A stretch of 64,000 nucleotides of DNA, taken from contig WGNE01000034.1 in assembly GCA_016124645.1 (NCBI GenBank), positions 19,852 to 83,851 of the forward strand, written 5' to 3'. Positions 7,378-61,687 of this stretch are shown piece by piece. How positions within the stretch are numbered: position 1 is the first letter of the stretch; every line of letters begins with the position of its first letter. The position numbers and the translations under genes are program-made. Under the pieces are notes generated by a model, which worked only from the letters and a program-made list of their open reading frames with translations, was not told the origin of the DNA and did not search any database. This DNA is from Alphaproteobacteria bacterium. GTDB lineage: Bacteria; Pseudomonadota; Alphaproteobacteria; Micavibrionales; UBA2020.

Positions 7378-7386
7378 TCGCGTCGC

Positions 7387-8116: not shown

Positions 8117-8184
8117 CACGGGTCTGAAAAGGAATTTTGCGTCGGCATCCCCGATTCCGGCGCCACAAGCAAGGATAGACGATC

Positions 8185-33703: not shown

Positions 33704-34711
33704 TTATTTGCCGCGCGGTTTTAAACTGAAACGCCCGGCCTTTTCGCGCAGGCGCCGCTGGTGCCGCTCGGCCGTCATGCCGGCGAGGGTTTCGGGCGAC
33801 ATGCCGCTTTTTTCCTGCACTCTGGGCGGCAGCTTGTCCCATGCCGCCTGCATCTCGGGGAATTTTTCGCGCCAGAGGTCGAGATCGAAGATTTTCTGCA
33901 GCTGACCGCGCTCCGCCGCCAGCGTGGCGAAGCTGCGGCCCTCGCGGTCCTTCATGCCGTGCAGGTCGTCGAAGCAAAAGCCGTCGCCCGTGGCCTTCAT
34001 CTTTTCGACCACGGCGGAAAGGCAGTTCATTTTCACCGCGCGGATGAAGCCGGGCTCGCCCGTTTCAAGATAGGGCGCGCGCAAAAACCCGCGCGTGCTG
34101 GACAAGCCGTCCAGCTCCTGCAGGAAGAGGCTGCGCTGCGCGTTCATTTCCTCGGACAGGCGCTCGATGACGCCGATATGGTCGTCCGTGCGCGCCAGTT
34201 CCAGAGCGGAGCCGAACATGGCGAAGGGGTCCGCGTGATGCGCCATCAGGATGCCGACGACGAAGGTATGCCCGCCGAAGGCCGCGCGGCGCAGCGCCTG
34301 GTCGTCGGAAAAATGCGGGTCGGCGCCCGCGTCCAGCAGCGCGCGCACCATCGTGGGATCGCCGCGCGTGGCGGCCTTGATGAGGGGCTCGCCCTCCATC
34401 GCGTTCGGGTCCGCGCCGCCGTCGAGCAGCGTGATGACGGTGGTCGTCTGGCCGTTGCTGGCCGCGAAGCGCAGCGCCTCGTCCGACATGGCGTGGATAT
34501 CCGCGCCGCGTTCCAGCAGGAATTCGACGGCCGCGTCATGGCCGTTGCTGGCGGCGCGGCGCAGGGCGCGGCTGCGGTCGAAATCCGCCTTCGCCCCCGC
34601 CTTGATCGCGGCCTTCATGGCTTCGATATCGCCGTCGCTGGCGGCATCCACCAGCGCGTCGCCGTGGCGCAGCTCTTCTTCCCAGCCGCCGTTTTCGGGG
34701 TGATAGGCCAT
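33704..34711 (-). CDS. ankyrin-repeat protein
   Basis: Start MAYHPENGG overlaps the xthA stop (TGATG). Repeats include ALRRAASNGHDAAVEFLLERGADIHA, EALRFAASNGQTTTVITLLDGGADPNA and PLIKAATRGDPTMVRALLDAGADPHF. Confidence 0.8.
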   Translation of the reverse strand: MAYHPENGGWEEELRHGDALVDAASDGDIEAMKAAIKAGAKADFDRSRALRRAASNGHDAAVEFLLERGADIHAMSDEALRFAASNGQTTTVITLLDGGADPNAMEGEPLIKAATRGDPTMVRALLDAGADPHFSDDQALRRAAFGGHTFVVGILMAHHADPFAMFGSALELARTDDHIGVIERLSEEMNAQRSLFLQELDGLSSTRGFLRAPYLETGEPGFIRAVKMNCLSAVVEKMKATGDGFCFDDLHGMKDREGRSFATLAAERGQLQKIFDLDLWREKFPEMQAAWDKLPPRVQEKSGMSPETLAGMTAERHQRRLREKAGRFSLKPRGK

Positions 34712-35517
34712 CAGGCGGCCTCCTTGATGTCGAGGATGACGGGCGCGTGGTCGCTGGGGCGTTCCCAGCCGCGCACCTCGCGCAAAATCTGCTGCTTTTG
34801 CAGGGCGGGCTTCAGCTTTTTCGTGACCCATATATGGTCGAGCCTGCGGCCCTTGTCCGCCGCGTCCCAGTCCTTCGCGCGGTAGCTCCACCATGAATAG
34901 AGCTTTTTCTCCTCCGGCACGAAGTGGCGCACGGCGTCCACCCAATCGACGGATTCGTAAAAGCGCGTGAACTTCTCGACCTCGACCGGGGTGTGGGACA
35001 CGACCTTCAAAAGCTTCTTGTGGTCCCAGACGTCGTTTTCCAGCGGGGCGATGTTGAGGTCGCCAACCGCGATCATCGGCTTTTTCGCGCCGCGCTCCTT
35101 CGCGAACCATGCCGTCAGCTCATCGACGAAGTCCAGCTTGTGGCGGAACTTGTCGTTCGCCTCGGGGTCCGGCTCGTCCCCGCCCGCGGGAATGTAGATA
35201 TTGTGCAGCTCGAAGGGGTTGCCCTTCAGCTTCACCTTGGCGGAGATGTGGCGGCAATCGTCCTTGCCGCAGCGGCGGTGGATTGCCTTGTCCGCAAGCG
35301 GCAGGCGCGAGAGGATCGCGACGCCGTTATAGCCCTTCATGCCGGTGAAATGCTGGTGCACAAAGCCCTTGTCCGCGAAGGCGTCGGCGGGGAAGAATGC
35401 GTCGGGCGTCTTGGTTTCCTGCAGGCACAGCACGTCCGGCTTCGCCTTGGCGACGAGCTTCATGACGGTGTCGATCCGCAGGCGGACGGAATTGATGTTC
35501 CATGTCACAAGACGCAT
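34711..35517 (-). CDS. xthA: exodeoxyribonuclease III
   Basis: MRLVTWNINSVRLRIDTVMKLVAKAKPDVLCLQETK...SDHAPV. Confidence 0.95.
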   Translation of the reverse strand: MRLVTWNINSVRLRIDTVMKLVAKAKPDVLCLQETKTPDAFFPADAFADKGFVHQHFTGMKGYNGVAILSRLPLADKAIHRRCGKDDCRHISAKVKLKGNPFELHNIYIPAGGDEPDPEANDKFRHKLDFVDELTAWFAKERGAKKPMIAVGDLNIAPLENDVWDHKKLLKVVSHTPVEVEKFTRFYESVDWVDAVRHFVPEEKKLYSWWSYRAKDWDAADKGRRLDHIWVTKKLKPALQKQQILREVRGWERPSDHAPVILDIKEAA

Positions 35518-36544: not shown

Positions 36545-36761
36545 GGGGGCGCCTGCCTTTTCTGTCTTTATATATAGGAATATGGTTGGTTGTTATGAAA
36601 CCTATAGAGGCCGCGCCCCGAAGTCAACACGCCGCCGCCCCCGCCGAAAATATGACTTAACTCACTGAAAATATATAGAGATTAGGCCTGACTTCGGTTT
36701 GCATTGCCCTATTTTGCAGTATTATGATAAATTAGAACAGTTTCAACAAGACGGACGTCCG

Positions 36762-37856
36762 ATGTTCGGCAAACCGCGCACCATATTCGAAAACGCCGCC
36801 CGCCCGCCGGGGCCCCTCGCGCCGCCGCCGGTGGACGCATGGAAAGCCGTCAGCAGCGACGACCTGAAGGCGCTGAAAAAGCTGCTGGGCGACAACCCCG
36901 CGCTGCTGCGCGAAATCAGGCGCGTGCCCATCGCGCACCGCCAGCTCGTCGAGATGAACCTCCTTCATTACGCCGCCCTCGTCGGCAGCAAGGAAGCGGT
37001 GGAGATGCTGGACGCATGCGGCGCCAATATCCACGCGCCGACGGCGCCGGACGGCTATACCCCCGCCATCCTCGCCGCGCGGGCGGGCAAGCTGGCCACG
37101 CTGGAATTCCTGAAGCTGAATGGCGCGAACCTCGACGCGCAGGCCCGCAGCCGCGCCACCGCGCTGAACGAGGCCTGCACGCGCGGCCACGCCGCCTGTG
37201 CGCATTTCCTGCTGGAAAACAAGGCGAAGATAAAAGATTCCGCCGGGCGCTTCCGCCTGCCCGACATCGTCGCCGCCGCCGAACAGGGACACAGGGAGAT
37301 CGTCGAGGATTTGCTGGCGCATGGCGCGAAAATCGACACGCGCGATTCAGCCGGGCGCAGCGCGCTGTGGTGGGCGCTCTACCGCGGGCATCACGACCTC
37401 GCGCAAGAGCTGATGGACCGCGGCGCGGATACCTCCCTTTCCGACGACGACGGCATGACCATGCTGATGGCCGCCATCATGGGCGGCGGCACGGACAGCG
37501 CGCGCCGCTTGCTGGACGAGGGCGTCCCGGTCAACGAAGGCGCGAAAAGCGGCGATACCGCCCTGCACTACACCGCCTATTCGAACCGGAAAGCCGCGGC
37601 GCGCGACATCGCCGTCCTGCTGCTGGAACGCGGCGCGTGGACGGACATCAAGAACAACCAAGGTGAAACGCCCGCCGACAGCTCGCGGCGGATGCGCGAC
37701 GGCGACTTGACCCGCACCATCGAAATCGCGGAGAAGGATGCGGGCCGCCCCTCCGCGCAGAACATGATACCCAAAAGATTCATGGACGGCACCTGCCGCA
37801 CCGTCAAGCCCATGAAGCCGCTGCAGCTAAAGCCGCGCGGCAAAACGAATTCCTGA
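36762..37856 (+). CDS. ankyrin-repeat protein
   Basis: Repeats include NLLHYAALVGSKEAVEMLDACGANIHA, YTPAILAARAGKLATLEFLKLNGANLDA and TALHYTAYSNRKAAARDIAVLLLERGAWTD. ATG 36762 preferred over the TTG at 36699. Confidence 0.8.
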   Translation: MFGKPRTIFENAARPPGPLAPPPVDAWKAVSSDDLKALKKLLGDNPALLREIRRVPIAHRQLVEMNLLHYAALVGSKEAVEMLDACGANIHAPTAPDGYTPAILAARAGKLATLEFLKLNGANLDAQARSRATALNEACTRGHAACAHFLLENKAKIKDSAGRFRLPDIVAAAEQGHREIVEDLLAHGAKIDTRDSAGRSALWWALYRGHHDLAQELMDRGADTSLSDDDGMTMLMAAIMGGGTDSARRLLDEGVPVNEGAKSGDTALHYTAYSNRKAAARDIAVLLLERGAWTDIKNNQGETPADSSRRMRDGDLTRTIEIAEKDAGRPSAQNMIPKRFMDGTCRTVKPMKPLQLKPRGKTNS

Positions 37857-43063: not shown

Positions 43064-43138
43064 GCCGTTGTAGCTCAGTGGTAGAGCATTCGCTTCGTAA
43101 GCGAGTGGTCGGAGGTTCGAATCCTCTCAACGGCACCA
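43064..43138 (+). tRNA. tRNA-Thr (anticodon CGU), CCA encoded
   Basis: Hand-folded cloverleaf: acceptor GCCGTTG/CAACGGC, D arm GCTC-AGTGGTA-GAGC, anticodon arm TTCGC-TTCGTAA-GCGAG (CGT), T arm GGAGG-TTCGAAT-CCTCT, then A-CCA. Confidence 0.9.
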
Positions 43139-43169
43139 TTTTTCTTTTCATTGCAAGTCTGGACTGGCT

Positions 43170-43283
43170 GGCCGCACCCGTGACGGTCAGGATATTCCCC
43201 GCGAGGTCGTAGGTATAAGCGGTGGTCAGCGCATTGCCGCCGCGCGTGTCCGTCTCCTGCGTCACGCGCCCGAGGGCGTCGCA
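43170..43283 (-). pseudogene. orphan rhs YD-core fragment
   Basis: Encodes DALGRVTQETDTRGGNALTTAYTYDLAGNILTVTG, about 85% identical at DNA level (by eye) to rhs 45755-45858. It has no start codon and runs towards the tRNA. Confidence 0.75.
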
Positions 43284-43293
43284 GGGAGCGAAA

Positions 43294-43519
43294 TTTCAAT
43301 ATTTCAATTTACTCCGACCCCCTTGATTTAGCGTCGCGTTCAGGGAAGTGTCGGAGGGTGCGGAGTTTCAATATTTCAATTTACTCCGACCCCATTGATT
43401 AGGTGCCCCTTGTAGGCGGCCCCGCAGCCGGTGGAGGAATCGTAGGTCAGCGTCGCGTTCAGGGAAGTGTCGGAGGGTGTGGGGTTTCAATATTTCAATT
43501 TACTCCGACCCGGTTGATT
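43294..43519. repeat. three 35-bp direct repeats interleaved with rhs-core-derived inserts
   Basis: TTTCAATATTTCAATTTACTCCGACCC-NN-TTGATT at 43294-43328, 43366-43400 and 43485-43519. The inserts (37 nt and 84 nt) match rhs 45948-45976 and 45899-45976. Confidence 0.85.
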
Positions 43520-43553
43520 AACCCCATTGATTATTGATTGGAATAGAATCTAT

Positions 43554-44276
43554 TTATTTTGCATCTTTTGATTTACGTGCTGCACGGGCATTCCGAATCT
43601 CGTGCACAAACTCATCTATAATGGACTGCATTCTCTCTATATCGCTTTTAGAATATGAGGGATCTTCTATTTGCAGAGCCATCCCCAACGCTGATAAATC
43701 AAAATTCTTTAAAATTATTTGTTCAATAGCTTCGGTTCTAACGCCGCGATACATGGCCAATATATGCTCTATACCATGAACTGCACTCCGCCTAGCCAAA
43801 GCACAACCATGTTGCAACATATTCGCTATTGTTGAGGCGACCACAGATAAGACTTCCGTTTCACGGCTAAGACTGTTTTTTTTGAATGCACAATAAGTAA
43901 AAACAGAATCCCACCACATATAACCAGCTACATTAAGATTCGCGTTTTTGCAAAGAAGATCATCGAATAGCGATCCAATCGCCTCTATGCACTCTTTTTT
44001 CTGCTGAAACTGCACTGCATCACTCACCACAAATCGTAAAAATCCATTCGGCCCCGGTATGAACCAAAGCCCTTGGTCTATTTGGCCTATTGTATATTTT
44101 TCAGTCAGTCCCGCCGAGCTTTTAAACATGCGCGTCATATACGACACAGCCATCACCTCGGGACACGTATAGCCCCATGCTTCATCATTGTGCCAAGCGA
44201 AAAGAATATCAGTTACAGGATGGTCGAATACAAAGTCCAGCCACTCCTCATAAGAAATATTAGACAGGTCATGCAT
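43554..44276 (-). CDS. putative Rhs-toxin immunity protein (unknown family)
   Basis: 240-aa AT-rich ORF starting 11 nt downstream of the rhs stop, on the same strand. No signal peptide or TM helix. Called by position only. Confidence 0.6.
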   Translation of the reverse strand: MHDLSNISYEEWLDFVFDHPVTDILFAWHNDEAWGYTCPEVMAVSYMTRMFKSSAGLTEKYTIGQIDQGLWFIPGPNGFLRFVVSDAVQFQQKKECIEAIGSLFDDLLCKNANLNVAGYMWWDSVFTYCAFKKNSLSRETEVLSVVASTIANMLQHGCALARRSAVHGIEHILAMYRGVRTEAIEQIILKNFDLSALGMALQIEDPSYSKSDIERMQSIIDEFVHEIRNARAARKSKDAK

Positions 44277-44287
44277 ATGATGAACAC

Positions 44288-47200
44288 CTACATTGCCAAT
44301 GCCGCAATTATTAAAACCGTACCTAAAGACATGGAAGCAGCGGCCGCAGCGGTGTTCGGGTCTGGCACACTTGGTACCGAGGTCGGGCCACTATTCTTTG
44401 TCTTGGTATAGCCTCCCCACTTCCAACGCGGGATCATCGGTGACGAAAAACTACGCGTAGGGGGGGCTCCGTGACATACACCTGTATCGATCTGTTGCTC
44501 GTATATATCATAGCATTTTCCAAGCATCGTACACTGCTGGTGAATTTGTTGTGCATGCCCCCACCAGTCTTCAAAAGGCTGGCCACTCAATGAGTATGGA
44601 ACCATCTGCAAGGTTCTCACTGCTATAGATATTTTAAGCAGTGAAATCTTCTTTTCCAATTCCTCACAAGTGTCCTCTGTCGTACAGCTTTTAAGTTCAT
44701 GAGTAGTGTAATAGTTTAACCCCAAAAGATCGATTACATTGACTGGGTCCTGTCCAACGTAACCGAAGGTATTCATCCCGCCCGCAAGCCCAATAGGATC
44801 AGAGCTGATATAGCGTCCAATAGCCGGATTATAATACCTGTTCCAGTTGGCGAAAAGCCCGGATTCTGAGTCATAATACTGCCCCGGCATCCGAAGGTTG
44901 ACCGTCACGCTGCCGCTGGGCGTGCTGGTGCCGAAGGCATCGTTATTCCACGACCAGACCTGCGTACCGCCGGTATTGGTGGCGAATCTCGGTGTTCCCA
45001 AATGGTCCGTATGCAGATACGTGAGAACCTCGGGGCTGCCCGCGTCGATCTGGGCCAAGGGTGCGCCATTCAGATAGACGTACTCGCGGATGAAGTTGCC
45101 GGAGGTGTCGTATTCGCCGAAGAGCTGCCCATTGGGGCCATAGACGTAATAGGTCGTGCTGCTCGCCGTCACCTTCTTGGAGCGGCGGTGCAGCCAGTCG
45201 TAGGTATAGACGCCCGCCGTGGTGTTGACGGTGGCGAGGTTGCCCGCCGCGCTCCATGTGTAGGCGTTGGTGCCGTCGTTGGTGATGTTGCCGGCGGCGT
45301 CGTAGGTGTAGCTGTTCGCGCCGACCGCGCTGATCTTGTTGCTGGTGCTGGGCACGGTGGTCGTCGTGGTCGTGCCGTCGTCCTTGGTCAGGCGGTTGGA
45401 GGTGGCGTCGTAGGTGTAGCTGGTGGCGGTGCCGGGGTTTTCGGCATTGACGCGCAGCAGGGCGTCGTAGCCGTAGGTGGTGGCCCCCGCCTGCGTGACG
45501 TTGCCGTCGTCGTCCGTCGTATAGGTCCAGTTCGCGATGCCGCCGGAGACGGTGATGTTGGTCGGGTTGTAGTCCTGGTTGTACGTCGCGCTGTACGTCA
45601 GACTGTTGCCGTAGGTGAAGCCGCTCATCGGGCCGAAGGGCAGGTAGGCGGCGGAGCTCGCCAGCGTCGTGCCGGTGGAGTTCACCACGGCGGAGACGCC
45701 GCTCGCCTGCCCGTTCGCGTTGCGGGTATAGGTTACGACGCGGCCCGAGGGCAGCGTAATAGTCGCGATGTTCCCCGCGAGGTCATACGTGTACGCCGTC
45801 GTCAGCGCATTGCCGCCGCGCGTGTCGGTTTCCTGCGTCACGCGGCCGAGGTCGTCGTACTGGAACGCCGTCGTCCCCGCCGCGTCGGAGACGCTGCACA
45901 GGTGGCCCTTGTAGGGCGTGCCGCAGCCGGTGCTCGCGTCATAGGTCAGCGTCGCGTTCAGGGAAGTGTCGGAGGGATAGGCCACCGACGTCAACCGGTT
46001 GAGCGCGTCATAGGTGTAGTTGGTGACGACGCTGCGCGCATCCGTGCGCTGGGTCACGTTGCCCGCCTTGTCCACCGTGTAGGACAGCGTGCCCCGGTCC
46101 GGGCTCGTCTCCCCCGTCACGTCGCCGAAGGCGTTGTAGGTATAGGTGGTGGAGTTGCTGCGCTGGTCCTCGACCGAGGTCAGGTTATCCAGCGCGTCAT
46201 ACCCGTTGGTGGCGACGCCGGAGAGCGCGTCGGTCTGGGTCAGCAGCCTTTGCAGCCCGTCATAGGCGTAGGCGGTGGCGTTGTTGTTCGGGTCCGTGTA
46301 GCTGGTGAGCTGGCTGTTGCCGTCATAGGCGTAGTTTGCCGTCTGGCTCGACGCGCCGATGCTCTGGATGATGCGGGAGAGCGCGTCGAAGACTTTCTGG
46401 TGCGTGTATTTGAGGGCCGCGGAACTGTCCTTCACGTCCTCCTGCGTGATGTTGCCCGCATCGTCCAGCGTGTAGGTGATGGTGTTGCCCAGCGCGTCTT
46501 CCACGCCCGTCAGCCGCTGCGCGGAATCGTAGCTGTATTGCAGGTAGGCGCTGTTGGGCAGCGTGACCTTGGTGAGGTTGCCGTTGTCGTCGTAGTCGAA
46601 GGTGGTTTCCGCCTCGAGCGCCGTGCCGACCGCGCGGGTGGAGGTTTGCAGGCGGCCGTTGGTGTCATAGGTGTAATCCGTCTCCGTCCCGTTGGGGTCC
46701 GTGACCTCCGTCGGGCGGCCCGCCGAATCGCGCGAGACGATGGTGGTCACCTGCCCCAGCGCGTTGGTGATGGTTTTAAGGTCGAGGTTCGAATCATAGG
46801 TGTAATCCGTCGTGTCCGTCACATCCGTGCGCGGCCCGTCCACCTGCTCCAGCCGGCCGAGGATGGTATTGCCGCTGCCGTCGGTGGAGTTGGCGTAATA
46901 GGTATAGGTCGTGATGCGGGTGTCGGAGGTATTGGTGTCCGTCACCGTCTTCGACGTCACGCGGCCGTAGGTGTCGTAGTCGTAATCCGTCGTCCGGCCC
47001 GTTTCCGTGATCAGGTCGGGGAGGTTGTAGGTCGGGTCGTAGGTGATGGTCGTGATTTGCTGGTCGTCGGTATCCGCGTCGCGGGTGATTTGCGTGATGT
47101 TGCCGCGGTCGTCGTATTGGTAGCGGGTGGTGTTGTTCTCCCAGTCCGTTTTGCCGATGACGCGGCCCTTGTCGTCGTAGTTGTAATAGCGGCTCGCCGC

Positions 47201-49363
47201 CGAGGTATGGGCGGTGGCCGCGCGGTTTTCCTGCGTGATCCTGCGCACGTCCAGAATATTGGTGTAGTAAAAATCGCTGTCCTGGCTCAAGGCGTTGGTG
47301 GTGGTGGAGGTCTGGCCCGCGTTGTAGTTCACATCGGTATTGCTGGCGCCCCCCGCCAGCTGCGACTGGACGGCCTTGCCGTTCGTGTCATAGGTATAGG
47401 TGGCGTAGCGCGTGCCGCTTTCATCGGTGATGCCCGTCAGCGCGTTGACGTAAGTTGCGTTCTCGTAGTGGTAGCCGATGGTCTTGGTATCCGGCTTGGT
47501 CACGGTCTCGAGGTTGCCGTTCCCGTCATAGGCATAGCTGAAGGCGCCGTCTGGCGTGACCATCGTCGCGATGCGCCCGCTGGAATAGGTGAAACTGAGC
47601 GACCGCCCGTTCTCGTTGGTGACGGAGGTCAGCTGGCCCGAGCCGTTATAGGCAAGGTTCAGCGCCCCGCCGCCCAGATACTCGATGCGCGTGAGCTGGT
47701 AGGAGCTGTTGTATTTCTCGACCGTGTCGTTCGGCAGGGTGTAGATATATCCCCCGCTGCCGTCGTCCGCCAGCGTCGCCGTGGTGTCGGCATCGTCCGC
47801 CACCCAGTCCGATCCGCTCTTCGTATAGCCCGTGACCGCGCCCGTGCCGTCGGTGATCGAGGCCGTCGTGCCGCCGGTGACGGTCAGCGTGCGCGCGTAA
47901 TTCGTGCGCCAGAGCTGCCCGATCGTGTTGTCCGTCCACGTGCTGTCCGAGCGGTAGATGCGCGAGAAGGTCAATCCGCCCGCGTTGTAATCCGTCGCCG
48001 ATTCTGTCAGGTAGCCGACATCGAAGTTGATGGGGTCGCCGGCAAGGCTGCTTCGCCCCTCGTTGCATGTCACGCAATACCTGCCTGCCTTTGTTGCGTC
48101 AGATGCGGCAACCGTCGTCGGCGTCGTTGTCTGGCTCACCGTGTAAGGACCGGTGTTGTAGTTATAATAGCCCTTAAGGGTGATGGTATATTGACCGGTT
48201 TGAGGTAAAGTCGAGGATAAAGAATTGTAAGCCCACCCCCAGTAAGTACCGTCAGGCTTGATGAAAGTCATAGCCCTCGTAAACGAACCCGTGGTCGTGA
48301 TGGAAACATGATTGCCCGATGTGCCCGTAAAGAAATAGCTGTCAATACCGTTCTTTGGCAGGTTCCCGGAGCGGGTATCTCCGCTGATAAGACTACCGCC
48401 CGAAACGTTTTCTCCGCCAAACTGAGTATAAAGAATGTAAGGGCCGGTGTCATAACGATAATAGCCATACAAAACGACTGTATAGGTACCGCTAACAGGC
48501 AGCGTTACGGCTAAACGGGTGTTTCCCACGGTCCAGTAGCTGCCATCAGGCTTATACAGGTTGATGTGCGCAGTGTAAGAAGCGTTGTCAAAAAGCTGGA
48601 CGTACTGCCCTGCAGTACCTTCCAACTGAAAGCTTTCAATGCCGTTCGTAGGCAGTATGCCGTTATAGGGTTGAGCGCTTACCAACTTACCGTTTGAAAC
48701 CCCACCGCCGCCGAGCTGGTAATACATTGTGAAAGGGCCATACATCGGGTTTGTGCCGGAAGTATATGACGTCATGGCCACAGTGTAGGTTCCGCTGGAA
48801 GGAAGCTGAACACTCAGCAGATCATGGGAAGATCCCCAGTAGCTGCCATCTGATTTATATATATAGATATTGGTTGTATAGTTGGGAGAATGGGTCGTAA
48901 TGAGAACATTCTGCCCGGAATTTCCAGTTAAATGGAAACTCGCAACGCTGTTCCTGTTAGCCAGTGAGCCGTTATAAGGTTGTCCGCTCGTCAGGTCACC
49001 GTTTGCAACGTCTCCTTCCCCGAGTAAATAATCGAAGCTAAAATCGCCAGTGCCTGAAGAGAACTCAGGGGATACGGCTAAATCATAAGTTCCGGTATCG
49101 GGAAGCGTGACGACAAGACGATTGTTCGCAGAGGTCCAGCTACTGCCGTCAGGCTTTTTTATAACCATATGTATGCCATAGGTAGAGTAAGCGCCGAGGA
49201 TAATCCCCTGTCCGGCTGTCCCTGTAAAGCTGTAGTGCAGAGTCGCGCCGACAGCAAGAAACCCGTTTGTCGTCGTGCCGCTGGTGATTGTCGTCGCATG
49301 CGCCGGAGCAGCATGGAAAAAGAGGAACGCGGAAACTAAAATACCAAATAAAAACTTCTTCAT
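44288..49363 (-). CDS. Rhs/YD-repeat polymorphic toxin with Sec signal peptide and N-terminal beta-sandwich repeats
   Basis: Signal peptide MKKFLFGILVSAFLFFHAAPAHA. Four units of about 100 aa (..GTYTV..DGSYW..). Rhs plug GDPINFDVGYLTESATDY. Dozens of YD repeats. Core end NRYYNPAIGRYISSDPIGLAGG...DPVNVIDLLGL. A 142-aa C-terminal module follows. Confidence 0.92.
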   Translation of the reverse strand: MKKFLFGILVSAFLFFHAAPAHATTITSGTTTNGFLAVGATLHYSFTGTAGQGIILGAYSTYGIHMVIKKPDGSSWTSANNRLVVTLPDTGTYDLAVSPEFSSGTGDFSFDYLLGEGDVANGDLTSGQPYNGSLANRNSVASFHLTGNSGQNVLITTHSPNYTTNIYIYKSDGSYWGSSHDLLSVQLPSSGTYTVAMTSYTSGTNPMYGPFTMYYQLGGGGVSNGKLVSAQPYNGILPTNGIESFQLEGTAGQYVQLFDNASYTAHINLYKPDGSYWTVGNTRLAVTLPVSGTYTVVLYGYYRYDTGPYILYTQFGGENVSGGSLISGDTRSGNLPKNGIDSYFFTGTSGNHVSITTTGSFTRAMTFIKPDGTYWGWAYNSLSSTLPQTGQYTITLKGYYNYNTGPYTVSQTTTPTTVAASDATKAGRYCVTCNEGRSSLAGDPINFDVGYLTESATDYNAGGLTFSRIYRSDSTWTDNTIGQLWRTNYARTLTVTGGTTASITDGTGAVTGYTKSGSDWVADDADTTATLADDGSGGYIYTLPNDTVEKYNSSYQLTRIEYLGGGALNLAYNGSGQLTSVTNENGRSLSFTYSSGRIATMVTPDGAFSYAYDGNGNLETVTKPDTKTIGYHYENATYVNALTGITDESGTRYATYTYDTNGKAVQSQLAGGASNTDVNYNAGQTSTTTNALSQDSDFYYTNILDVRRITQENRAATAHTSAASRYYNYDDKGRVIGKTDWENNTTRYQYDDRGNITQITRDADTDDQQITTITYDPTYNLPDLITETGRTTDYDYDTYGRVTSKTVTDTNTSDTRITTYTYYANSTDGSGNTILGRLEQVDGPRTDVTDTTDYTYDSNLDLKTITNALGQVTTIVSRDSAGRPTEVTDPNGTETDYTYDTNGRLQTSTRAVGTALEAETTFDYDDNGNLTKVTLPNSAYLQYSYDSAQRLTGVEDALGNTITYTLDDAGNITQEDVKDSSAALKYTHQKVFDALSRIIQSIGASSQTANYAYDGNSQLTSYTDPNNNATAYAYDGLQRLLTQTDALSGVATNGYDALDNLTSVEDQRSNSTTYTYNAFGDVTGETSPDRGTLSYTVDKAGNVTQRTDARSVVTNYTYDALNRLTSVAYPSDTSLNATLTYDASTGCGTPYKGHLCSVSDAAGTTAFQYDDLGRVTQETDTRGGNALTTAYTYDLAGNIATITLPSGRVVTYTRNANGQASGVSAVVNSTGTTLASSAAYLPFGPMSGFTYGNSLTYSATYNQDYNPTNITVSGGIANWTYTTDDDGNVTQAGATTYGYDALLRVNAENPGTATSYTYDATSNRLTKDDGTTTTTTVPSTSNKISAVGANSYTYDAAGNITNDGTNAYTWSAAGNLATVNTTAGVYTYDWLHRRSKKVTASSTTYYVYGPNGQLFGEYDTSGNFIREYVYLNGAPLAQIDAGSPEVLTYLHTDHLGTPRFATNTGGTQVWSWNNDAFGTSTPSGSVTVNLRMPGQYYDSESGLFANWNRYYNPAIGRYISSDPIGLAGGMNTFGYVGQDPVNVIDLLGLNYYTTHELKSCTTEDTCEELEKKISLLKISIAVRTLQMVPYSLSGQPFEDWWGHAQQIHQQCTMLGKCYDIYEQQIDTGVCHGAPPTRSFSSPMIPRWKWGGYTKTKNSGPTSVPSVPDPNTAAAAASMSLGTVLIIAALAM

Positions 49364-49411
49364 ATCGGCCCTCTTCCCGCAAAAAACGTCTAAAAGCGCT
49401 GCAGTTAAAAT

Positions 49412-50047
49412 TTAATTTTTCCGGCGGAAGTCGATTTCCACGGCCTTGTATTCCTGCCCCGCGCTGCCGGTGAGATAAATCGTCACCTTGTATGTATCGC
49501 TGCTGGTGAATGCGATCTCCGAACGGTATGGCCGTTCCTTGTCTAGCAAGGGGAACATCAGCTTTCCCTTTTGCTCGAGTGCATTATTCTTTTTATCGTA
49601 TTGTCCGGTTCCGGTTGTCATGCTGGTATGGTTGTCATCCAGCCATACGGAGGTGAAGGCTTTTTTAATCCTGTCGTAGCCGAGATAACCTATAGCGTTA
49701 TAGGGGATGTTCTGGCCGCCGATATTCAGGGGAACACTCGTCTCGAGCGACAGGAAGCGGTTGTTGAAAATCATCTTGTTGGTCGTATAGCCCGTGGACA
49801 TTTGGGCGGGCGCGCCTTTTTTGCTCCAAAAATTGAGGTCGTAATCCCAGTCCCCGACGAGGGCGGCCAGAATCTGGTTCTGCTCAGAAGCTTCCCCCTG
49901 CTTTTCCAGTTTCTGCATGGCCTCCTTGCCCAGCAATTCGGCGCGTGGCGCGGGCGTTGCCTTGGCCTTCTGCGCCGCAAACGCGGGCGCGCCGGTTCCG
50001 GCCATCAAAAAAACTGCAATGAATAATGCGATGAAAGACCTGCTCAT
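49412..50047 (-). CDS. DUF1579-like exported protein
   Basis: Signal peptide (FIALFIAVFLMAGTGAPAFA). LVGDWDY...GYLGYDRIKKAFTSVWLDDNHTSMTTGTGQYDKK...YKAVEIDFRRKN fits the DUF1579 pattern as I recall it. Confidence 0.55.
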   Translation of the reverse strand: MSRSFIALFIAVFLMAGTGAPAFAAQKAKATPAPRAELLGKEAMQKLEKQGEASEQNQILAALVGDWDYDLNFWSKKGAPAQMSTGYTTNKMIFNNRFLSLETSVPLNIGGQNIPYNAIGYLGYDRIKKAFTSVWLDDNHTSMTTGTGQYDKKNNALEQKGKLMFPLLDKERPYRSEIAFTSSDTYKVTIYLTGSAGQEYKAVEIDFRRKN

Positions 50048-50312
50048 CTATTCCCCTCTTGTGAACAGCGCCGGAAAGCCTGGCTGCGAAGCTGAAACGA
50101 TGTGACCCACAACCGCCCGGTCTTCCCGCCCGGCGCGGATGACGCCAGACGAAAAGAAGAATCCGTCACGGACTGGTTTTTATCTTTTCCATGATACGAC
50201 CGCAAGGTTAATAAATAGAGAATTTTTCAACCTGAGCACGTATGTGTGCGGCGAGGGTGACGGCAACGGAAAAGCTGCCGGGCCGTATAAACGAAACCGA
50301 AAATAAAAAAAA

Positions 50313-50903
50313 TCAGGAAGGTTTTCTTTGCGCCTTTTGTCCCTGCGCTGCGGGGCGCGCGGGCGGGCTTGAGGTTATCTCCCATGTCGCATCGAAGGCT
50401 TTCTTGTCGATGCCGGTGACGTGGCCCTTGTCGTCCACCTTCAGCGTCGCGCCGGTGAAGAGGAACTGGTGCTGCCCGGCGCCCCAGGCGTCCTTGATGC
50501 AGGAGGGCTCGCGCACCGCTTCCTGCAGCAGGCTGGCGGTCTTCGTGCTTTTCACGCGCACGCCGCCGTGTTCGTAATCGTCGGCGGTGATCTCGTAGCC
50601 CTTGCTTTCCAGCGCGCTGAACTGCCAGCGCGTGCCGTCGGTATTGCCGGGCACATAGACGTCGTCCGGGTTGTGCAGGTTGGTGAAGATGGCGTCGCCT
50701 TTTCGCGCGGTATAGACAGATTCGATCTTGCCCTTGGTGTTCTTGGTCTCGATGCGCTCGCCGCCCTGCGCGCAACGCACCAGCGTTTCCGTCGCCTTGC
50801 GTCCCTGCGCCGCGCCGCTGAAATCGACCGCCGCCACGTCCAGCACCTTGCAACGCGTGCCGTCGGGGCTGTCGATGTATTCTTCCTTGTAGGGCAGGCC
50901 CAT
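50313..50903 (-). CDS. hypothetical protein
   Basis: 196-aa ORF, chosen over the overlapping Arg/Gly-rich ORF 50227-50964. No motif recognised. Confidence 0.45.
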   Translation of the reverse strand: MGLPYKEEYIDSPDGTRCKVLDVAAVDFSGAAQGRKATETLVRCAQGGERIETKNTKGKIESVYTARKGDAIFTNLHNPDDVYVPGNTDGTRWQFSALESKGYEITADDYEHGGVRVKSTKTASLLQEAVREPSCIKDAWGAGQHQFLFTGATLKVDDKGHVTGIDKKAFDATWEITSSPPARPAAQGQKAQRKPS

Positions 50904-50986
50904 TTTCGCATCCTCTTCCTCTAAGATGATACAGGAGGAAGGTTAAAAAGGGCTGAGCGCGCAAACAATTGAAAATAAAACGATAT

Positions 50987-51892
50987 TTAAAGCGATTTCG
51001 CCAACGCGAGACCGAGCAGGATGGTGAGCAGCGGGCCGAGGGTCTGCTGCAGGGCGGTCAGCGCGTCATCCGTCTGCTTGTTGTAATATTCGGCGACATG
51101 GGCGAGCGTCTGGGAAAGATTGCCTGAATTCTCCCCCGCCTTCAGCATCACGACGGACATGCGGTCGGCGTAGCGGCACTTGACGAAGGCCTCCGCCAGC
51201 GACGCGCCCGCCTGCACGCGCGGAATGGCGGCCGCGAGGTCGTCGCGCAGCACGAGGTTGGGCACCACCCCCACCGCGATCTCCAGCCCGCGCCGCAGCG
51301 GGATGCCCGCCATATAGGCCATGCCCAGCGCGTCGGCGAAGCGCGCATAGGAATACTGCCGGATGAAGCGCGCGCCGGGACCGCTCATCAGGAACAAATG
51401 GTCGGTCAGACGCCGCACCCCCGGCACATAGCGGCGGCCCCAGGTGACGGCGAAGACGGCGGCGAGGACGCCGACCGCCAGCTTCGGAAAAAGGCTGTGC
51501 CGCTTGACGAGCGCCATGCCCGCGATGACCACGGCGGCGATCTTCGGCTGCAGCGTCGCGCGGCGCATCTGGCGGCTGTGGTTTTCGACCTGTTCGTAAT
51601 AATCCTTGCAGCGTTCCAGCACGCGGGCGAGCTTGCCCGATTCCTCCCCCGCCGCCACCAGCCCGCGCACCGCGTCGTCGAACAAATGCGGGTAAAGCCC
51701 CATCGCCTCGTACAGCTTGCCGCCGCCGCGCAGGAACGCGGACATGTTGCGCCATTTTTTCGCCAGCCCCGGAATCTCTTCGTCCTGCGCCGCCGCGTCG
51801 AGCGACTGCATCAGCGGCAGTCCCGCCTTCTCCATCTGCGAGAGATGGAGGAAAAAGCTGGTGAGGGCGCGGGCGGTTTTTTTCGAGGCCAT
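50987..51892 (-). CDS. type II secretion system F / PilC-like inner-membrane platform protein (orphan)
   Basis: Two T2SS-F-type domains (FFLHLSQMEKAGLPLMQSLD...VAAGEESGKLARVLE and ALGMAYMAGIPLRRGLE...LKAGENSGNLSQTLAHVAEYY) separated by TM helices. Confidence 0.7.
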   Translation of the reverse strand: MASKKTARALTSFFLHLSQMEKAGLPLMQSLDAAAQDEEIPGLAKKWRNMSAFLRGGGKLYEAMGLYPHLFDDAVRGLVAAGEESGKLARVLERCKDYYEQVENHSRQMRRATLQPKIAAVVIAGMALVKRHSLFPKLAVGVLAAVFAVTWGRRYVPGVRRLTDHLFLMSGPGARFIRQYSYARFADALGMAYMAGIPLRRGLEIAVGVVPNLVLRDDLAAAIPRVQAGASLAEAFVKCRYADRMSVVMLKAGENSGNLSQTLAHVAEYYNKQTDDALTALQQTLGPLLTILLGLALAKSL

Positions 51893-51897
51893 GCGGT

Positions 51898-52767
51898 TTA
51901 AGGTTTCTTCGGCCCGCCGTCGGGCGCATCCGCCGGCTCGACGGTCAGGCCCATCGGCAGCAGGATGTCCTTGCCACCCGCCCGGTACTGGACGAAGTAT
52001 TTCAAAAATCCCGCGCGCTTCGGGTGCAGAATGAAGATGACCGGGGTGAAGCCGCGGTCGTCCGGCGATTTCGGCGCGAAGCCGACGGTGTACATGTGCT
52101 GCACCGTCGAAAAATCGTCATAGAAACCGACGATATAGGCGAAGCCGTCCATCACCGGTTGCAACCCGGCGAAGGGCATGCTGTTCTTTTCGTCGATATA
52201 AAGCTTTCCGATGGCATCCTTGCCCGCCTTCACCGTCTTGCCGTCCCAGATCACGTAGATGCTGCTGCCCTCGAGCTTCACGCGCTGGGCGAAGATCTTG
52301 TTGACGCAAAAGCTCTTGCAGGGCTCCTTGCCCGGCAGCAACGCCGGAATGTCCTGCGCGGGCTTGCCCTTCGGCTTGATCTCGACGAAAACCTTGTAGT
52401 CGTGCGGCTGCTGCGGCGTGAAGGAAAAGATGTAGTTGCCGGGCATGCCGTCGGGTCGCGGGAAGATGTGCTGGAAATCCTGCAGGCTCTGGTCCACCAC
52501 CAGCAGGTTGATCTTGTCGTCGCCGACGGGGTCGAGCTTGCGTAGCGTCACCGGGTCGCCGTCCCCGTCCGTCAGGCGCAGGCTGAGATGCGCTTCCTGC
52601 CCCTTGACCAGCGGCACGACGGATTCGACATGCGCGTGATAGGTAGGCGCACCGTAGGGGATGTTTTGCGGCGTGTCCTGCGTCGCGCGCGCGCCGCCCG
52701 CGCCGCAAATAACGAAAGCGCCGCACATGAAAAACGCAAAGACGCGTGAAAAAGAAATCGCTGACAT
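51898..52767 (-). CDS. exported hypothetical protein (possible Ig-like/YtkA-FixH-like fold)
   Basis: Signal peptide. KINLLVVDQSLQDFQHIFPRPDGMPGNYIFSFTPQQPHDYKVFVEIKP resembles YtkA/FixH-type periplasmic domains. Weak, motif-level evidence only. Confidence 0.5.
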   Translation of the reverse strand: MSAISFSRVFAFFMCGAFVICGAGGARATQDTPQNIPYGAPTYHAHVESVVPLVKGQEAHLSLRLTDGDGDPVTLRKLDPVGDDKINLLVVDQSLQDFQHIFPRPDGMPGNYIFSFTPQQPHDYKVFVEIKPKGKPAQDIPALLPGKEPCKSFCVNKIFAQRVKLEGSSIYVIWDGKTVKAGKDAIGKLYIDEKNSMPFAGLQPVMDGFAYIVGFYDDFSTVQHMYTVGFAPKSPDDRGFTPVIFILHPKRAGFLKYFVQYRAGGKDILLPMGLTVEPADAPDGGPKKP

Positions 52768-53175
52768 GAAAAAAAACCCGCTTTCGCCGTTTACCGCCGC
52801 GCGCCTTGCACCCCCGCGCTTCCATGATAAATTATGCCACAGATTGCCCGCGCAAAGGAACAGCGCAGGGCATGATTCCGCGGGTTTTCATAGGCGGAGA
52901 TGCGTGCGAAAACGCCGCGCGGCGCGCATGCGAATCGTCCGTCATTGCGGGAATCTTCTGTGAAAAGCGTCATTTTCCATGTGCGAATGCACAAAAATTT
53001 GCGCGCGATTGAACGCAATTTCAAAAAAAATTTTCGTTTTGTTTTCAACGCGTTTTTTTGCGCTGCGGGAAAACCGGAAAATATTTGTCTGGACAAAACG
53101 CGCCAATCTTCTCTAAGACCGAAATGGGGCAGCTAGAAGGTCCCATCGCATTAACACCTAACAAGGAGAGATGCC

Positions 53176-53307
53176 ATGAGCAACGAAGAAAACAAAACCG
53201 AAGAGCAAGCAGCTCCCGCACAAGCGGAAGAGAAAAAGGAAGAGGGCGCCTGCACCGAAGGTGCAAAAGAAGAAGGTGCCTGCACCGCCGACAAAGGCGC
53301 TGCATAA
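53176..53307 (+). CDS. small acidic Cys-containing peptide (43 aa)
   Basis: My own translation gives MSNEENKTEEQAAPAQAEEKKEEGACTEGAKEEGACTADKGAA. AAGGAGAG Shine-Dalgarno 6 nt upstream and a strong terminator downstream. Below the ORF-track cutoff. Confidence 0.5.
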   Translation: MSNEENKTEEQAAPAQAEEKKEEGACTEGAKEEGACTADKGAA

Positions 53308-53327
53308 GCTCTTCCCTCTCTTTGAGG

Positions 53328-53370
53328 AAAAAAGAAGCCGGGTTGTCGAAAACCCGGCTTCTTGCTGTTT
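53328..53370 (+). terminator. Rho-independent terminator
   Basis: AGAAGCCGGGTT-GTCGAA-AACCCGGCTTCT followed by a T-rich tract. Confidence 0.75.
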
Positions 53371-53483
53371 ACGCGGCGGCGCAGCATGCATTTTATCTTT
53401 GTTTTACAGTGACTTTTTCCTGCGCGCTTGCCAGAACCGGCATGTTTGTCTAAGATAACAGGCAAGCAAAAAAGAGGAAAAGC

Positions 53484-54038
53484 ATGACGACACCTGCACT
53501 GCAGATCGTGAAGGCGCTGAATTTCGCGGCGCAGAAACACACCGACCAGCGCCGCAAGGGCGAACGCGCGGAGCCCTACGTCAACCACCTCACCGAAGTC
53601 GCCGAGCTTCTGGCCACGCATACCGGCGGCACGAACACCGACGTCATCCTCGCCGGCATCCTGCACGACACGGTGGAGGACACGAAAACCACGCGCGACG
53701 AACTGGTGCGCGAATTCGGCGAGAACATCGCGGACATCGTGATGGAATGCACCGACGACAAGAGCCTGCCGAAGGCCGAGCGCAAGCGCCTGCAGGTCGA
53801 AAACGCGCCGCATAAATCCGACGACGCGAAGATGGTGAAGATGGCGGATAAAATCTCCAACCTGCGCGCCATCCTGCTCAGCCCGCCGCCCGACTGGGAA
53901 CTGTCGCGCAAACAGGAATACTTCGACTGGGCCAAGAAAGTCGTCGATGGTTGCCGCGGCGTGAACGCGGGTCTGGAGAAGGAATTCGACAAGACTTATG
54001 CCCGCGGCGTGAAGACCTTCGGCATGAAGGCGGCGTAA
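53484..54038 (+). CDS. HD-domain (p)ppGpp hydrolase-like protein (small alarmone hydrolase, Mesh1/SpoT-hydrolase type)
   Basis: ALNFAAQKHTDQRRKGERAEPYVNHLTEVA...AGILHDTVEDT...ADIVMECTDD...KMADKISNLR. Confidence 0.75.
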   Translation: MTTPALQIVKALNFAAQKHTDQRRKGERAEPYVNHLTEVAELLATHTGGTNTDVILAGILHDTVEDTKTTRDELVREFGENIADIVMECTDDKSLPKAERKRLQVENAPHKSDDAKMVKMADKISNLRAILLSPPPDWELSRKQEYFDWAKKVVDGCRGVNAGLEKEFDKTYARGVKTFGMKAA

Positions 54039-57947: not shown

Positions 57948-59144
57948 ATGGATGATTATGACGGCCCTGACGAGGTGGTGCGACAACTCCGCCCCGACAT
58001 ACCTGTAACCTGTTTCCGCCCCGCGGCGCTGGAAAGCGCGGCACGCTGGTTTTTGACGAATTTCCCCGGAAAAGTGCTCTACGCCGTCAAGGCGAACCCG
58101 GCGCCCTACGTGCTGTCCGGGCTGCATGCCGCGGGCATCACCCATTTCGACGCCGCCTCCGTGCCGGAAATCCAGCTGGTCCACAGCCTGTGCCCCGGCG
58201 CGCATATCGCCTTCATGCACCCGGTCAAAAGCCGCCACGCCATCGAGCAGGCCTATTTCGACTTCGGCATCCGCGACTTTTCCTTCGACAGCATGGAAGA
58301 GCTGGAGAAGATCGTCGCCTGCACGGGCAAGAGCAAGGACCTCGGCCTCATGCTGCGCCTCGCCGTGCCGAACACGGCGTCCGAACTGCCGCTTTCGGGC
58401 AAGTTCGGCTGCCCGCCGGAAAAGGCCGTCGCCATCCTGAAGGCGGCGCGCAAGCTGGCGGCGCGCATCGGCATCTGCTTTCACGTCGGCTCGCAGACCA
58501 TGGACCCGCAGGCCTATGTCGCCGCGCTGGCCATCGTCGGCACCATCCTGCGCGCCATGCCGCGCACGAAGGTGGACGTCATCGACATCGGAGGAGGCTT
58601 TCCCTCGGTCTATCCCGACATGGCGCCGCCCGCGCTTGCAGATTATAAAACCGCCATCGACGCAGGGCTGGACGCCCTGCCCCACCCCGAGCGCTATGAT
58701 TTCTGGTGCGAGCCCGGCCGCGCGCTGGTCGCCGAAAGCGCCTCGGTCGTCGTGCAGGTGGAGCTTCGCAAGGACGACGTCCTTTACATCAACGATGGAA
58801 CCTATGGCAGCCTGTTCGACGCGGGCCACATGGGTTTCCGTTACCCGGTTCGTCTCATCCGTCCGACGCCGGGGGGCACAGATGCCGCGCTGAAGGGTTT
58901 CCGTTTCTACGGCCCCACCTGCGACAGCATCGACTACATGCCCGGACCCTTCTTCCTGCCGGAAGACGTCAGGGAGGGGGACTACATCGAGATCGGCCAG
59001 CTGGGCGCATACGGCAACACGATGCGCACGGACTTCAACGGCTTTTCCGCCCATGAGGTGGTGAGCGTGAAGACCCCGCCGCTGGTGACGCTCTACGATG
59101 ACGCTTTGGAAACGACGGATCCAAAAGAGCTCTGCGTGGCCTGA
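57948..59144 (+). CDS. type III PLP-dependent ornithine/lysine/arginine decarboxylase (ODC-like)
   Basis: YAVKANP (PLP lysine), HVGSQ, GGGFP, EPGR, CDS.D motifs of the Orn/DAP/Arg decarboxylase family. Confidence 0.85.
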   Translation: MDDYDGPDEVVRQLRPDIPVTCFRPAALESAARWFLTNFPGKVLYAVKANPAPYVLSGLHAAGITHFDAASVPEIQLVHSLCPGAHIAFMHPVKSRHAIEQAYFDFGIRDFSFDSMEELEKIVACTGKSKDLGLMLRLAVPNTASELPLSGKFGCPPEKAVAILKAARKLAARIGICFHVGSQTMDPQAYVAALAIVGTILRAMPRTKVDVIDIGGGFPSVYPDMAPPALADYKTAIDAGLDALPHPERYDFWCEPGRALVAESASVVVQVELRKDDVLYINDGTYGSLFDAGHMGFRYPVRLIRPTPGGTDAALKGFRFYGPTCDSIDYMPGPFFLPEDVREGDYIEIGQLGAYGNTMRTDFNGFSAHEVVSVKTPPLVTLYDDALETTDPKELCVA

Positions 59145-59194
59145 CCCCAAGGAAGGGCAGCCACAGGGCTATTTTAAACCGAAGAGGCACTATC

Positions 59195-60867: not shown

Positions 60868-60876
60868 TGCCGGCTA

Positions 60877-61536: not shown

Positions 61537-61687
61537 CTTGACACCCTGTATTTTTATATTATGTATAATGCGAATACTATATACGCCGGGCGTAAAACCG
61601 TCAAACGAACGATAAAAAAGATATATTATTCATAGCATTAGTGCCCTATACTGCGCCCCGTAGCAAAGACGATTCAGGAGATTCACC

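Follow-up and report, generated by a model that had tools for sequence, protein, structure and literature searches.

In a 64,000-nt stretch of alphaproteobacterial DNA (NCBI GenBank assembly GCA_016124645.1, contig WGNE01000034.1, positions 19,852 to 83,851; hereafter the window, with all coordinates counted from its first letter), an rhs gene next to a tRNA-Thr gene encodes a polymorphic toxin which, judged from its sequence, carries a cleavable Sec-type signal peptide followed by four beta-sandwich domains resembling PPC domains, and which lies directly downstream of a gene for a secreted protein of the DUF1579 family. The same gene pair was found at all seven independent loci where it could be looked at. 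Taken as a whole, the account in which this locus is a Sec-dependent Rhs toxin cassette, with DUF1579 as an accessory and with an origin on an integrase-borne island, is judged moderately probable. To our knowledge, mechanistic studies of Gram-negative Rhs toxins deal almost entirely with delivery through the T6SS (Type VI secretion system). Rhs proteins with signal peptides have been catalogued but left unexplained, and a partner that diverges together with the toxin would offer a testable handle on how a shell of ~180 kDa passes a diderm's outer membrane or comes to decorate it. If the account is true, the pair would provide the first 'signature neighbour gene' of the Sec class of Rhs toxins, and a role for DUF1579. 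What is new here, a Sec-dependent Rhs subtype with tandem PPC-like domains and a DUF1579 partner, together with a small family of toxin tips, is modest but concrete.

The rhs gene is a single open reading frame (ORF) of 1691 amino acids (aa) and ~5.1 kb (44288-49363) and, like everything in the locus except tRNA-Thr, is encoded on the minus strand. By its repeats and its core motif the product is classified as a Rhs/YD-repeat polymorphic toxin. An exact look-up of this protein in an assembly index gave no record. In a Pfam scan it was matched by PF05593 (RHS_repeat) in 11 stretches at E=5.2e-70, by DUF6531 at aa 442-511 and by PF03527 (RHS), while the YD/RHS repeat shell was also recognized by TIGR01643 (E=3e-58). 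The Rhs-associated core profile TIGR03696 matched aa 1475-1549 (E=1.4e-20), where DPIG at aa 1522 is followed by ...DPVNVIDLLGL, a core end of the DPxGL type. Hydropathy analysis found only two hydrophobic segments in the whole protein, at aa 3-23 and aa 1671-1691, that is, in the leader and in the extreme C-terminal tail.

The leader has the make-up of a Sec-type signal peptide, with a basic n-region (MKK), 13 hydrophobic residues and an AxA site (AHA, followed by TT). A signal peptide with an AxA site is kept in five of six Rhs homologues (L081, L094, L098, L099 and P0001), the sixth having a truncated start. Behind it, residues 24-420 are made up of four repeats of ~100 aa each, which in an AlphaFold (AF2) model built with 23 homologues fold into four beta-sandwiches (mean predicted local distance difference test score, pLDDT, 91.3). 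Foldseek matched this model to the CUB domains of cubilin and neuropilin and to the tandem collagen-binding domains of ColG (5iku), and the best Pfam match of each single repeat was PF04151 (PPC), with nearly the whole profile covered. None of the four repeats reached the PF04151 gathering threshold (15-19 bits against 25.9, E 0.003-0.03), and they are therefore named PPC-like here, with no claim to family membership; homologues of the Rhs N-terminus do carry PF04151. The module is rare, being shared by only 33 proteins in a database of 5.8 billion clusters, and the modelled folds suggest that the four domains likely serve as a binding or targeting module for a target surface. With a cleavable N-terminal Sec signal peptide predicted and no other trafficking domain seen, the Rhs protein appears to belong to the Sec-dependent ('T2SS') class of polymorphic toxins, named after the Type II secretion system (T2SS).

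The protein encoded directly upstream scores 99.7 bits with PF07617 (cut-off 25.2, E=2e-28), in an alignment that takes in positions 3-155 of the profile's 155. Its AF2 model is a 10-strand barrel in which, from aa 60 to aa 211, most 10-residue blocks have a pLDDT of 75-94, and Foldseek placed it next to the nitrobindin-like OssO/OlmO, plant nitrobindin, Rv2717c and the nitrobindin domain of THAP4 (E 1e-8 to 3e-4, target TM-score 0.64-0.86). The top match was 7sfp (E=9e-9, target TM-score 0.86), followed by 2a13, 3wje, 2fr2 and 3ia8, so that on the modelled fold the DUF1579 protein is probably a periplasmic beta-barrel of the nitrobindin/calycin kind. Both the DUF1579 and the rhs gene have a ribosome-binding site, the stretch between them gave no sign of a terminator, and the two genes are read as probably co-transcribed. 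Since both products carry signal peptides, they would meet in the periplasm.

Conservation of the pair was seen from both sides. Among homologues of the Rhs N-terminus with context available (the P0001 contig, L081, L094 and L096), four of four had DUF1579 upstream, and an independent search with DUF1579 homologues gave three loci (L097, L098 and L099), all with a PPC-Rhs gene downstream. Counting the window and L097, which comes from the window's strain, as one locus, DUF1579 thus lies directly upstream of Rhs, on the same strand and with a gap of 27-91 nt, at 7/7 independent loci (window/L097, the P0001 contig, L081, L094, L096, L098 and L099), and signal peptides are kept on both proteins across them. 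Pairwise identities run from 37 to 78% for DUF1579 and from 38 to 73% for the Rhs N-terminal region, and they co-vary across the six loci for which DNA was at hand (r=0.94, 15 pairs, a value that is descriptive only because the 15 pairs are not independent). From locus to locus the other flanking genes are unrelated, and the ends with toxin and immunity gene vary too; the tip in L096, for example, is DUF4329, and P0001 has DUF6869 as a neighbour. It is hence the delivery end of Rhs, rather than the toxin, that DUF1579 tracks, and this speaks against a toxin-specific immunity protein. A stand-alone protein of six PPC repeats (L095), taken as a negative control, is without a DUF1579 neighbour, and none of 12 distant DUF1579 loci (24-36% identity; metagenome scan, two-sequence alignment) has an Rhs neighbour. 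DUF1579 gave no match among plasmids, and among the papers available to a literature search none used the term DUF1579, and nothing relevant was found on Rhs with a PPC domain or on Micavibrio with Rhs. Because DUF1579 follows the Rhs N-terminal module rather than the toxin tip, it is tentatively proposed that this subfamily is a dedicated periplasmic accessory (a chaperone, an adaptor or a surface-retention factor) for T6SS-independent, Sec-dependent delivery of Rhs in diderms, with the PPC-like domains binding the target cell; this is put forward as a possibility.

In the Rhs effectors of the T6SS, such as RhsA of Pseudomonas protegens and those of Salmonella and Serratia, an upstream Eag (DUF1795) chaperone tracks the N-terminal delivery module. 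The locus described here resembles these systems in having a small accessory gene directly upstream and the same order of shell, DPxGL motif, toxin and (here putative) immunity gene, but it differs from them in that Rhs carries a Sec leader, with no VgrG and with neither PAAR, prePAAR nor a transmembrane helix at the N-terminus, and in that the predicted accessory is a secreted calycin-type barrel rather than a cytoplasmic DUF1795 dimer. The wall-associated WapA toxins of Bacillus subtilis and Streptococcus suis (PMC12704120) are likewise independent of the T6SS and have their parts in the same order, from a signal peptide through surface or binding repeats at the N-terminus and a YD shell to a polymorphic C-terminal toxin and an immunity gene (putative here); however, the Gram-positive system needs no outer-membrane step, as a diderm alphaproteobacterial host does, and the N-terminal repeats are PPC-like here, not cell-wall-binding, with a periplasmic partner protein present. 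In Table 1 of Zhang, de Souza, Anantharaman, Iyer and Aravind (2012; PMC3482391), the T2SS/Sec-dependent class is defined by a signal peptide, has '-' under neighbourhood signature genes, and includes RHS among its repeats. The present Rhs agrees with that class in having a signal peptide as sole trafficking signature, an RHS shell, a variable C-terminal toxin and an adjacent putative immunity gene. It departs from the same class in having DUF1579 upstream at all examined loci, and in a tandem PPC-like module that is not among the pre-toxin domains listed in the text of that paper available to us, in which 'PPC' and 'pre-peptidase' have 0 occurrences.

Since the Rhs protein would belong to this class, the missing T6SS partner is to be expected and poses no puzzle. 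Among the 52 ORFs of the window covered by the Pfam scan (five ORFs of 101-230 aa were left unscanned), no PAAR, VgrG, Hcp, DUF1795, DUF4123, Tc or other T6SS family was found, nor was any T6SS family present in the gene tables of the six other pair loci; the window's Rhs itself is without PAAR, prePAAR or an N-terminal transmembrane domain. The initial annotation of this DNA was thus right that no VgrG, PAAR, Hcp, DUF1795 or Tc partner is visible, as it was about the tRNA-Thr(CGU) gene and the mosaic of rhs-core scraps, three-copy repeat, AT-rich immunity-like ORF and 5.1-kb rhs gene beside it, all of which are present. Its further statement that no delivery machinery is visible is not supported, as it had missed the conserved Sec signal peptide, the PPC-like module and the DUF1579 partner; with the N-terminus and the gene upstream taken into account, the puzzle of the missing T6SS partners dissolves.

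In the proposed sequence of events, the signal peptide would take Rhs over the inner membrane and then be cleaved, after which the DUF1579 barrel may act on the exported protein as a holdase, an adaptor or a surface-retention factor, in a position analogous to that of the Eag chaperones. The PPC/collagen-binding-like domains would bind or target, while the DUF6531 plug and the YD shell would enclose the toxin until the DPxGL motif frees it. What would be freed is a tip of 142 aa, Cys-rich and weakly Ntox16-like, with a hydrophobic tail. The cassette itself most likely came on an integrase-borne island whose integrase and attachment (att) repeats have since been lost.

The tip has few relatives, 15 proteins (P0081-P0095) having been found at E<=1e-3 among 1.84 billion representative proteins. 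Wherever the region upstream of the tip was visible in these, a Rhs-type core end (IGxxGGxN...GL) precedes it, and RHS repeats were found in 6/10 full-length relatives scanned. In the alignment, D15, C17, K23, S30, R34, G45, Q46, G53, H54, Q57, Q60, Q61 and C68 are invariant, and the family is marked by conserved H, D, K and R, by GH..QI.QQ and cysteines, by a linker of the form PPCC...PLPxWKPEP and, usually, by a C-terminal hydrophobic tail. Ntox16 (PF15523), a helical domain of unassigned activity, likewise forms a short helical C-terminal tip on RHS proteins and gave weak matches in 9/14 members (best E=0.006, window E=0.12, all far below the 25-bit cut-off), but the conserved cysteines, the linker and the hydrophobic tail set the present family apart from it. 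A profile of the tip found nothing below E=0.5 among PDB sequences. On its sequence the tip thus appears to represent a small, apparently undescribed family of Cys-rich, putatively tail-anchored Rhs tips, and one may speculate from the tail and the cysteines that the toxin is membrane-associated.

Downstream of it, an AT-rich ORF of 240 aa, starting 11 nt after the rhs stop codon, is presumed from its position to encode a cytoplasmic immunity protein. It matched no Pfam or NCBIfam family and has no transmembrane or hydrophobic segment, as would befit a soluble protein. Its only remote tblastn matches were in two rhizobial plasmids, at ~25% identity; no toxin neighbour was found at the one plasmid context examined, the other plasmid record being unannotated.

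The DUF1579-rhs-immunity cassette, ~7.2 kb in all (43139-50312), begins 1 nt past the tRNA-Thr gene and stands out in composition. Flanks have a GC content of 63-64% and the Rhs core one of 64%, against 54% in the scrap/repeat region and 42-53% in the immunity gene, the tip, the PPC region, the upstream spacer and the DUF1579 gene, so that all cassette parts except the Rhs core lie ~10-20 points under the flanks. Such a GC content is usual for Rhs cores. Beyond the cassette, the genes for a 196-aa protein, a GspF-like protein and a 289-aa protein are host-like, at 61-66%. Since the DUF1579 gene belongs to the block, the block would end not at 49363, as first annotated, but near 50312, a far boundary that is placed by composition.

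A scan of genome collections found no close relative of the host. The best were metagenome-assembled genomes (MAGs) labelled Micavibrio or Alphaproteobacteria, with ~65% amino-acid identity in the neighbouring glutamine-synthetase-like protein and 60-85% in other housekeeping proteins, and the host is accordingly described as an uncultured alphaproteobacterium of ~61-64% GC that is distantly related to MAGs labelled Micavibrio. In 7/8 of the closest loci (L001-L006 and L023, not L007), tRNA-Thr(CGU) adjoins the glutamine-synthetase-like gene. The interval on its other side, up to an HD-domain gene (window 53484-54038), is a variable hot spot, and the cassette is absent from it in the nearest available genomes. 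It measures 10.3 kb in the window; in L002 tRNA-Thr and the HD gene are 0.5 kb apart, in L004 2 kb separate the two, and L023 has unrelated genes at the far flank. At the same site, L001 has 3.5 kb with arsenic-resistance (ars) genes (6263-8254), and L004 has an ORF (4678-6042) whose N-terminus is like the arm domain of a P4-type integrase and is fused to unrelated sequence. An RTX-like calcium-binding repeat protein of 726-751 aa is encoded beside the HD gene in both (L001 3212-5467, L004 1439-3619).

The initial annotation had taken the block for an island abutting the tRNA. Insertion at a tRNA 3' end, foreign GC, absence from the relatives' interval and integrase-linked homologues speak for it; no integrase was found between 43 and 54 kb and no flanking direct repeat was detected, both as annotated, the relatives are distant and the far edge comes from composition. 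The window has a single tyrosine recombinase gene, of XerC type and in a pair with DUF484 (31546-32496). No second copy of the tRNA 3' end was found in the window with up to 3 mismatches allowed, and the tRNA-proximal junction shares no exact match longer than 10 nt with 49364-53700, the one shared 10-mer being at chance level. Tyrosine integrases do lie near homologous cassettes at 3/6 other loci (L094, L096 and L098). L096 has the order tRNA-Gln, integrase, small ORFs, Rhs 3' end to Rhs 5' end, and DUF1579, its cassette being oriented to the tRNA as the window's is. The best reading is that the block is a decayed island, with its integrase and att repeats lost, in a recombination hot spot.

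Other neighbours of the pair are genes for AAA_15/AAA_21 ATPases, a helicase and an Eco57I-type enzyme in L094 (559-8200); integrase, helix-turn-helix (HTH) regulator and ParA-like genes in L098 (152-5981); and a HipA gene with an HTH-domain neighbour in L099 (496-2047). Such defence and mobile-element neighbours suggest that the cassettes travel in defence or mobile islands.

Between tRNA-Thr and the putative immunity gene lie three short rhs-core fragments and three AT-rich repeats of 37-38 nt. A 27-mer core of the repeat occurs in three exact copies (43294, 43366 and 43485), with 0 expected in 100 shuffles, and on the minus strand each repeat (TAATCAAnnGGGTCGGAGTAAATTGAAATATTGAAAC) comes first and an rhs fragment follows it. 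All three fragments start at one position of the core (~aa 1127, ...APSD...) and are alike over their first ~12-15 nt, and the third (scrap A) shows an apparent internal deletion before going on to ~aa 1203. The repeat is low in GC, like the toxin/immunity end. No exact copy was found in metagenome and viral collections or in any of the other loci compared, and in L094 and L096 the sequence downstream of Rhs held no similar array of repeats and scraps.

In Escherichia coli and Salmonella, orphan-module arrays consist of displaced rhs-CT/immunity fragments downstream of the main rhs gene. The array in the window is like these in holding same-strand rhs-core fragments downstream of the immunity gene, 84-86% identical to the main core, but unlike them it has only scraps of 34-130 nt, with no orphan toxin or immunity gene, and the scraps derive from mid-core (aa ~1127-1203), not from the core 3' end, and are each preceded by the 37-nt AT-rich repeat. 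Scraps and repeats may thus be leftovers of displaced orphan modules. Each incoming cassette would consist of a toxin and an immunity gene, with a core fragment of fixed starting point ahead of them and an AT-rich tail behind. By recombining into the core it would displace the cassette before it in the downstream direction, and the displaced one would later be deleted. Such a history leaves unaccounted for that each truncation ends exactly at the 5' end of the next repeat, and at 45947, inside the duplicated rhs segment, an independent assembly of this strain from short reads breaks off, which is a caveat on the assembly of the array. The coordinates of all features are collected in Table 1.

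Table 1. Features of the tRNA-Thr-linked Rhs locus, in window coordinates.
Feature	Coordinates	Strand	GC	Basis or remarks
tRNA-Thr(CGU); 3' end is the near edge of the variable interval	43064..43138	+		ARAGORN; Rfam tRNA 74.5 bits
rhs-core scrap A, putative remnant of a displaced orphan module; encodes ...DALGRVTQETDTRGGNALTTAYTYDLAGNILTVT	43165..43292	-		43179-43281 84% identical to rhs 45755-45857
Repeat R1, 38 nt, AT-rich; minus-strand TAAATCAAGGGGGTCGGAGTAAATTGAAATATTGAAAT	43293..43330	-		
rhs-core scrap B1, 34 nt (rhs ~aa 1127-1139)	43331..43364	-		Same start as B2
Repeat R2, 37 nt	43365..43401	-		
rhs-core scrap B2, 82 nt; encodes PSDTSLNATLTYDSSTGCGAAYKGH (rhs ~aa 1127-1155)	43402..43483	-		43401-43477 86% identical to rhs 45900-45976
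Repeat R3 (43484-43520) and a partial copy (43521-43533) with 13 nt from the 5' part of the repeat	43484..43533	-		
Putative immunity gene, 240 aa	43554..44276	-	42%	Position 11 nt past the end of rhs
Rhs C-terminal toxin domain, aa 1550-1691 (142 aa): Cys-rich helical domain, Pro-rich linker, hydrophobic tail aa 1671-1691	44291..44716	-	47%	After DPIGL...LLGL motif
Rhs shell: DUF6531 plug, YD/RHS repeats, Rhs-associated core with DPxGL autoproteolysis motif	44717..48043	-	64%	Pfam/NCBIfam matches
Four tandem PPC/collagen-binding-like beta-sandwich domains, aa ~24-420	48044..49294	-	50%	Model, Foldseek, weak PF04151
Predicted Sec-type signal peptide of Rhs, MKKFLFGILVSAFLFFHAAPAHA, followed by TT	49295..49363	-		Read by eye and hydropathy
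DUF1579 gene, 211 aa, own signal peptide	49412..50047	-	53%	PF07617; 48 nt upstream of rhs, same strand
Upstream intergenic region, probable promoter and far edge of foreign-composition cassette	50048..50312	-	51%	

How the Rhs protein leaves the cell, and whether DUF1579 takes part in this, can be read in other ways. Most characterised Gram-negative Rhs toxins are T6SS cargo, and with only 64 kb of the genome visible, VgrG, PAAR and Eag could be encoded elsewhere and Rhs be a conventional T6SS effector; yet the N-terminus consists of a conserved Sec signal peptide and beta-sandwiches where such an effector would have PAAR, prePAAR or a transmembrane domain, no T6SS family was seen in the scanned ORFs or at the six other loci, and T6SS cargo loads in the cytoplasm, with which a cleaved Sec signal peptide is incompatible. 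This makes a T6SS effector very improbable. It is rather doubtful, but far less so, that DUF1579 is an unrelated periplasmic passenger of the cassette, or serves another cassette function, with no part in the export or delivery of Rhs. DUF1579 is a broad family whose distant members do not sit beside Rhs genes, the papers available to the literature search gave no function for it, and the conserved adjacency and co-divergence on which an accessory role rests would also be produced by plain co-inheritance on one mobile cassette. A mere passenger is harder to reconcile with a pair that holds at 27-91 nt on the same strand down to ~37-45% identity while all other flanking genes and the toxin and immunity modules vary, and with signal peptides that would bring both proteins into one periplasm. 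The account of a Sec-exported Rhs with a DUF1579 accessory has further points to its disadvantage: Sec export is read from sequence only, the PF04151 matches lie under the gathering threshold, the T6SS-family scan covered only 64 kb of the genome, the immunity assignment of the 240-aa ORF is without homology support, and the pair is seen at seven loci only, several of which are short or frameshifted metagenome contigs. Nor is a nearby gene considered as export partner, the GspF/PilC-like one, conserved at the other loci.

For the arrival of the block, the competing explanation is an ancestral native locus that adjoins tRNA-Thr by coincidence. It would agree with the host-like GC of the Rhs core and with the recurrence of this arrangement where the strain was assembled independently, and it draws on two weaknesses of the island reading, namely that the window cassette has no integrase, att repeat or sequence-defined far boundary, and that the relatives, at ~65% amino-acid identity, are too distant for absence from them to date an insertion. 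Against an ancestral locus stand the 0.5-kb interval in L002 and the other cargo or integrase remnant in L001 and L004, the GC of DUF1579, the PPC region, the toxin tip and the immunity gene, which lies 10-20 points under the flanks, and the occurrence of homologous cassettes in surroundings of other kinds, with integrases in three cases and a position at tRNA-Gln in one; it is accordingly regarded as unlikely. That the 37-nt repeats form a small CRISPR-like array (clustered regularly interspaced short palindromic repeats) with rhs-derived spacers is scarcely credible. The minus-strand repeat does end in ATTGAAAC, and endings of this type are a typical 3' handle of type I/III CRISPR repeats; one 'spacer', moreover, is 34 nt long. 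The two 'spacers', however, are copies of each other and unequal in length (34 and 82 nt), there is no cas gene among the 52 ORFs scanned, Rfam gave no CRISPR-DR match at E<=1, and neither the metagenome nor the viral collections hold the repeat in exact form. A CRISPR array was rejected on these grounds of paralogous and unequal spacers, absent cas genes among scanned ORFs and lack of an Rfam family.

Locus L097 corresponds to window 45947-51117 and derives from the Logan assembly of SRR10063242, with 99.92% identity over 5171 nt and a contig that ends in the duplicated rhs segment. SRR10063242 is a metagenome from a New Zealand thermal spring at 27.2 C (PMC7692377).

The GspF/PilC-like gene (50987-51892, minus strand), 1.6 kb away, was considered as an export partner of Rhs and rejected for its host-like GC and its absence at the other loci. 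It is an orphan platform gene whose product has two T2SSF domains and, at 301 aa, is shorter than reference profiles of ~400 positions; no gene for a secretion ATPase or pseudopilin was seen near it. On its flanks are a 289-aa secreted protein (51898-52767) with a weak filamin/Ig-like match and the 196-aa protein, which is without a family match. The intergenic region that follows (52768-53483, 50% GC) holds an acidic ORF of ~43 aa (MSNEENKTEEQAAP...) with a good ribosome-binding site and then a strong terminator with a 13-bp stem (53332-53363). Rfam matches to STnc250 and the Thr leader in this region were rejected as below threshold, only tRNA having passed in the scan of 42.5-54 kb.

Elsewhere in the window, four ankyrin-repeat proteins are encoded at 14525-15463 (-), 25265-26869 (-), 33704-35110 (-) and 36699-37856 (+), the second of which has a GC content at third codon positions of 0.47 against ~0.85 in its neighbours. 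Ankyrin proteins at such a density are typically seen in bacteria that are associated with hosts or are predators, and whose targets are eukaryotic or prey cells. A cluster of polyamine type at 57948-62608 (+) comprises an Orn/DAP/Arg decarboxylase gene, a deoxyhypusine-synthase-like gene, a methyltransferase gene and an arginase-family gene, and its order is kept in L002.

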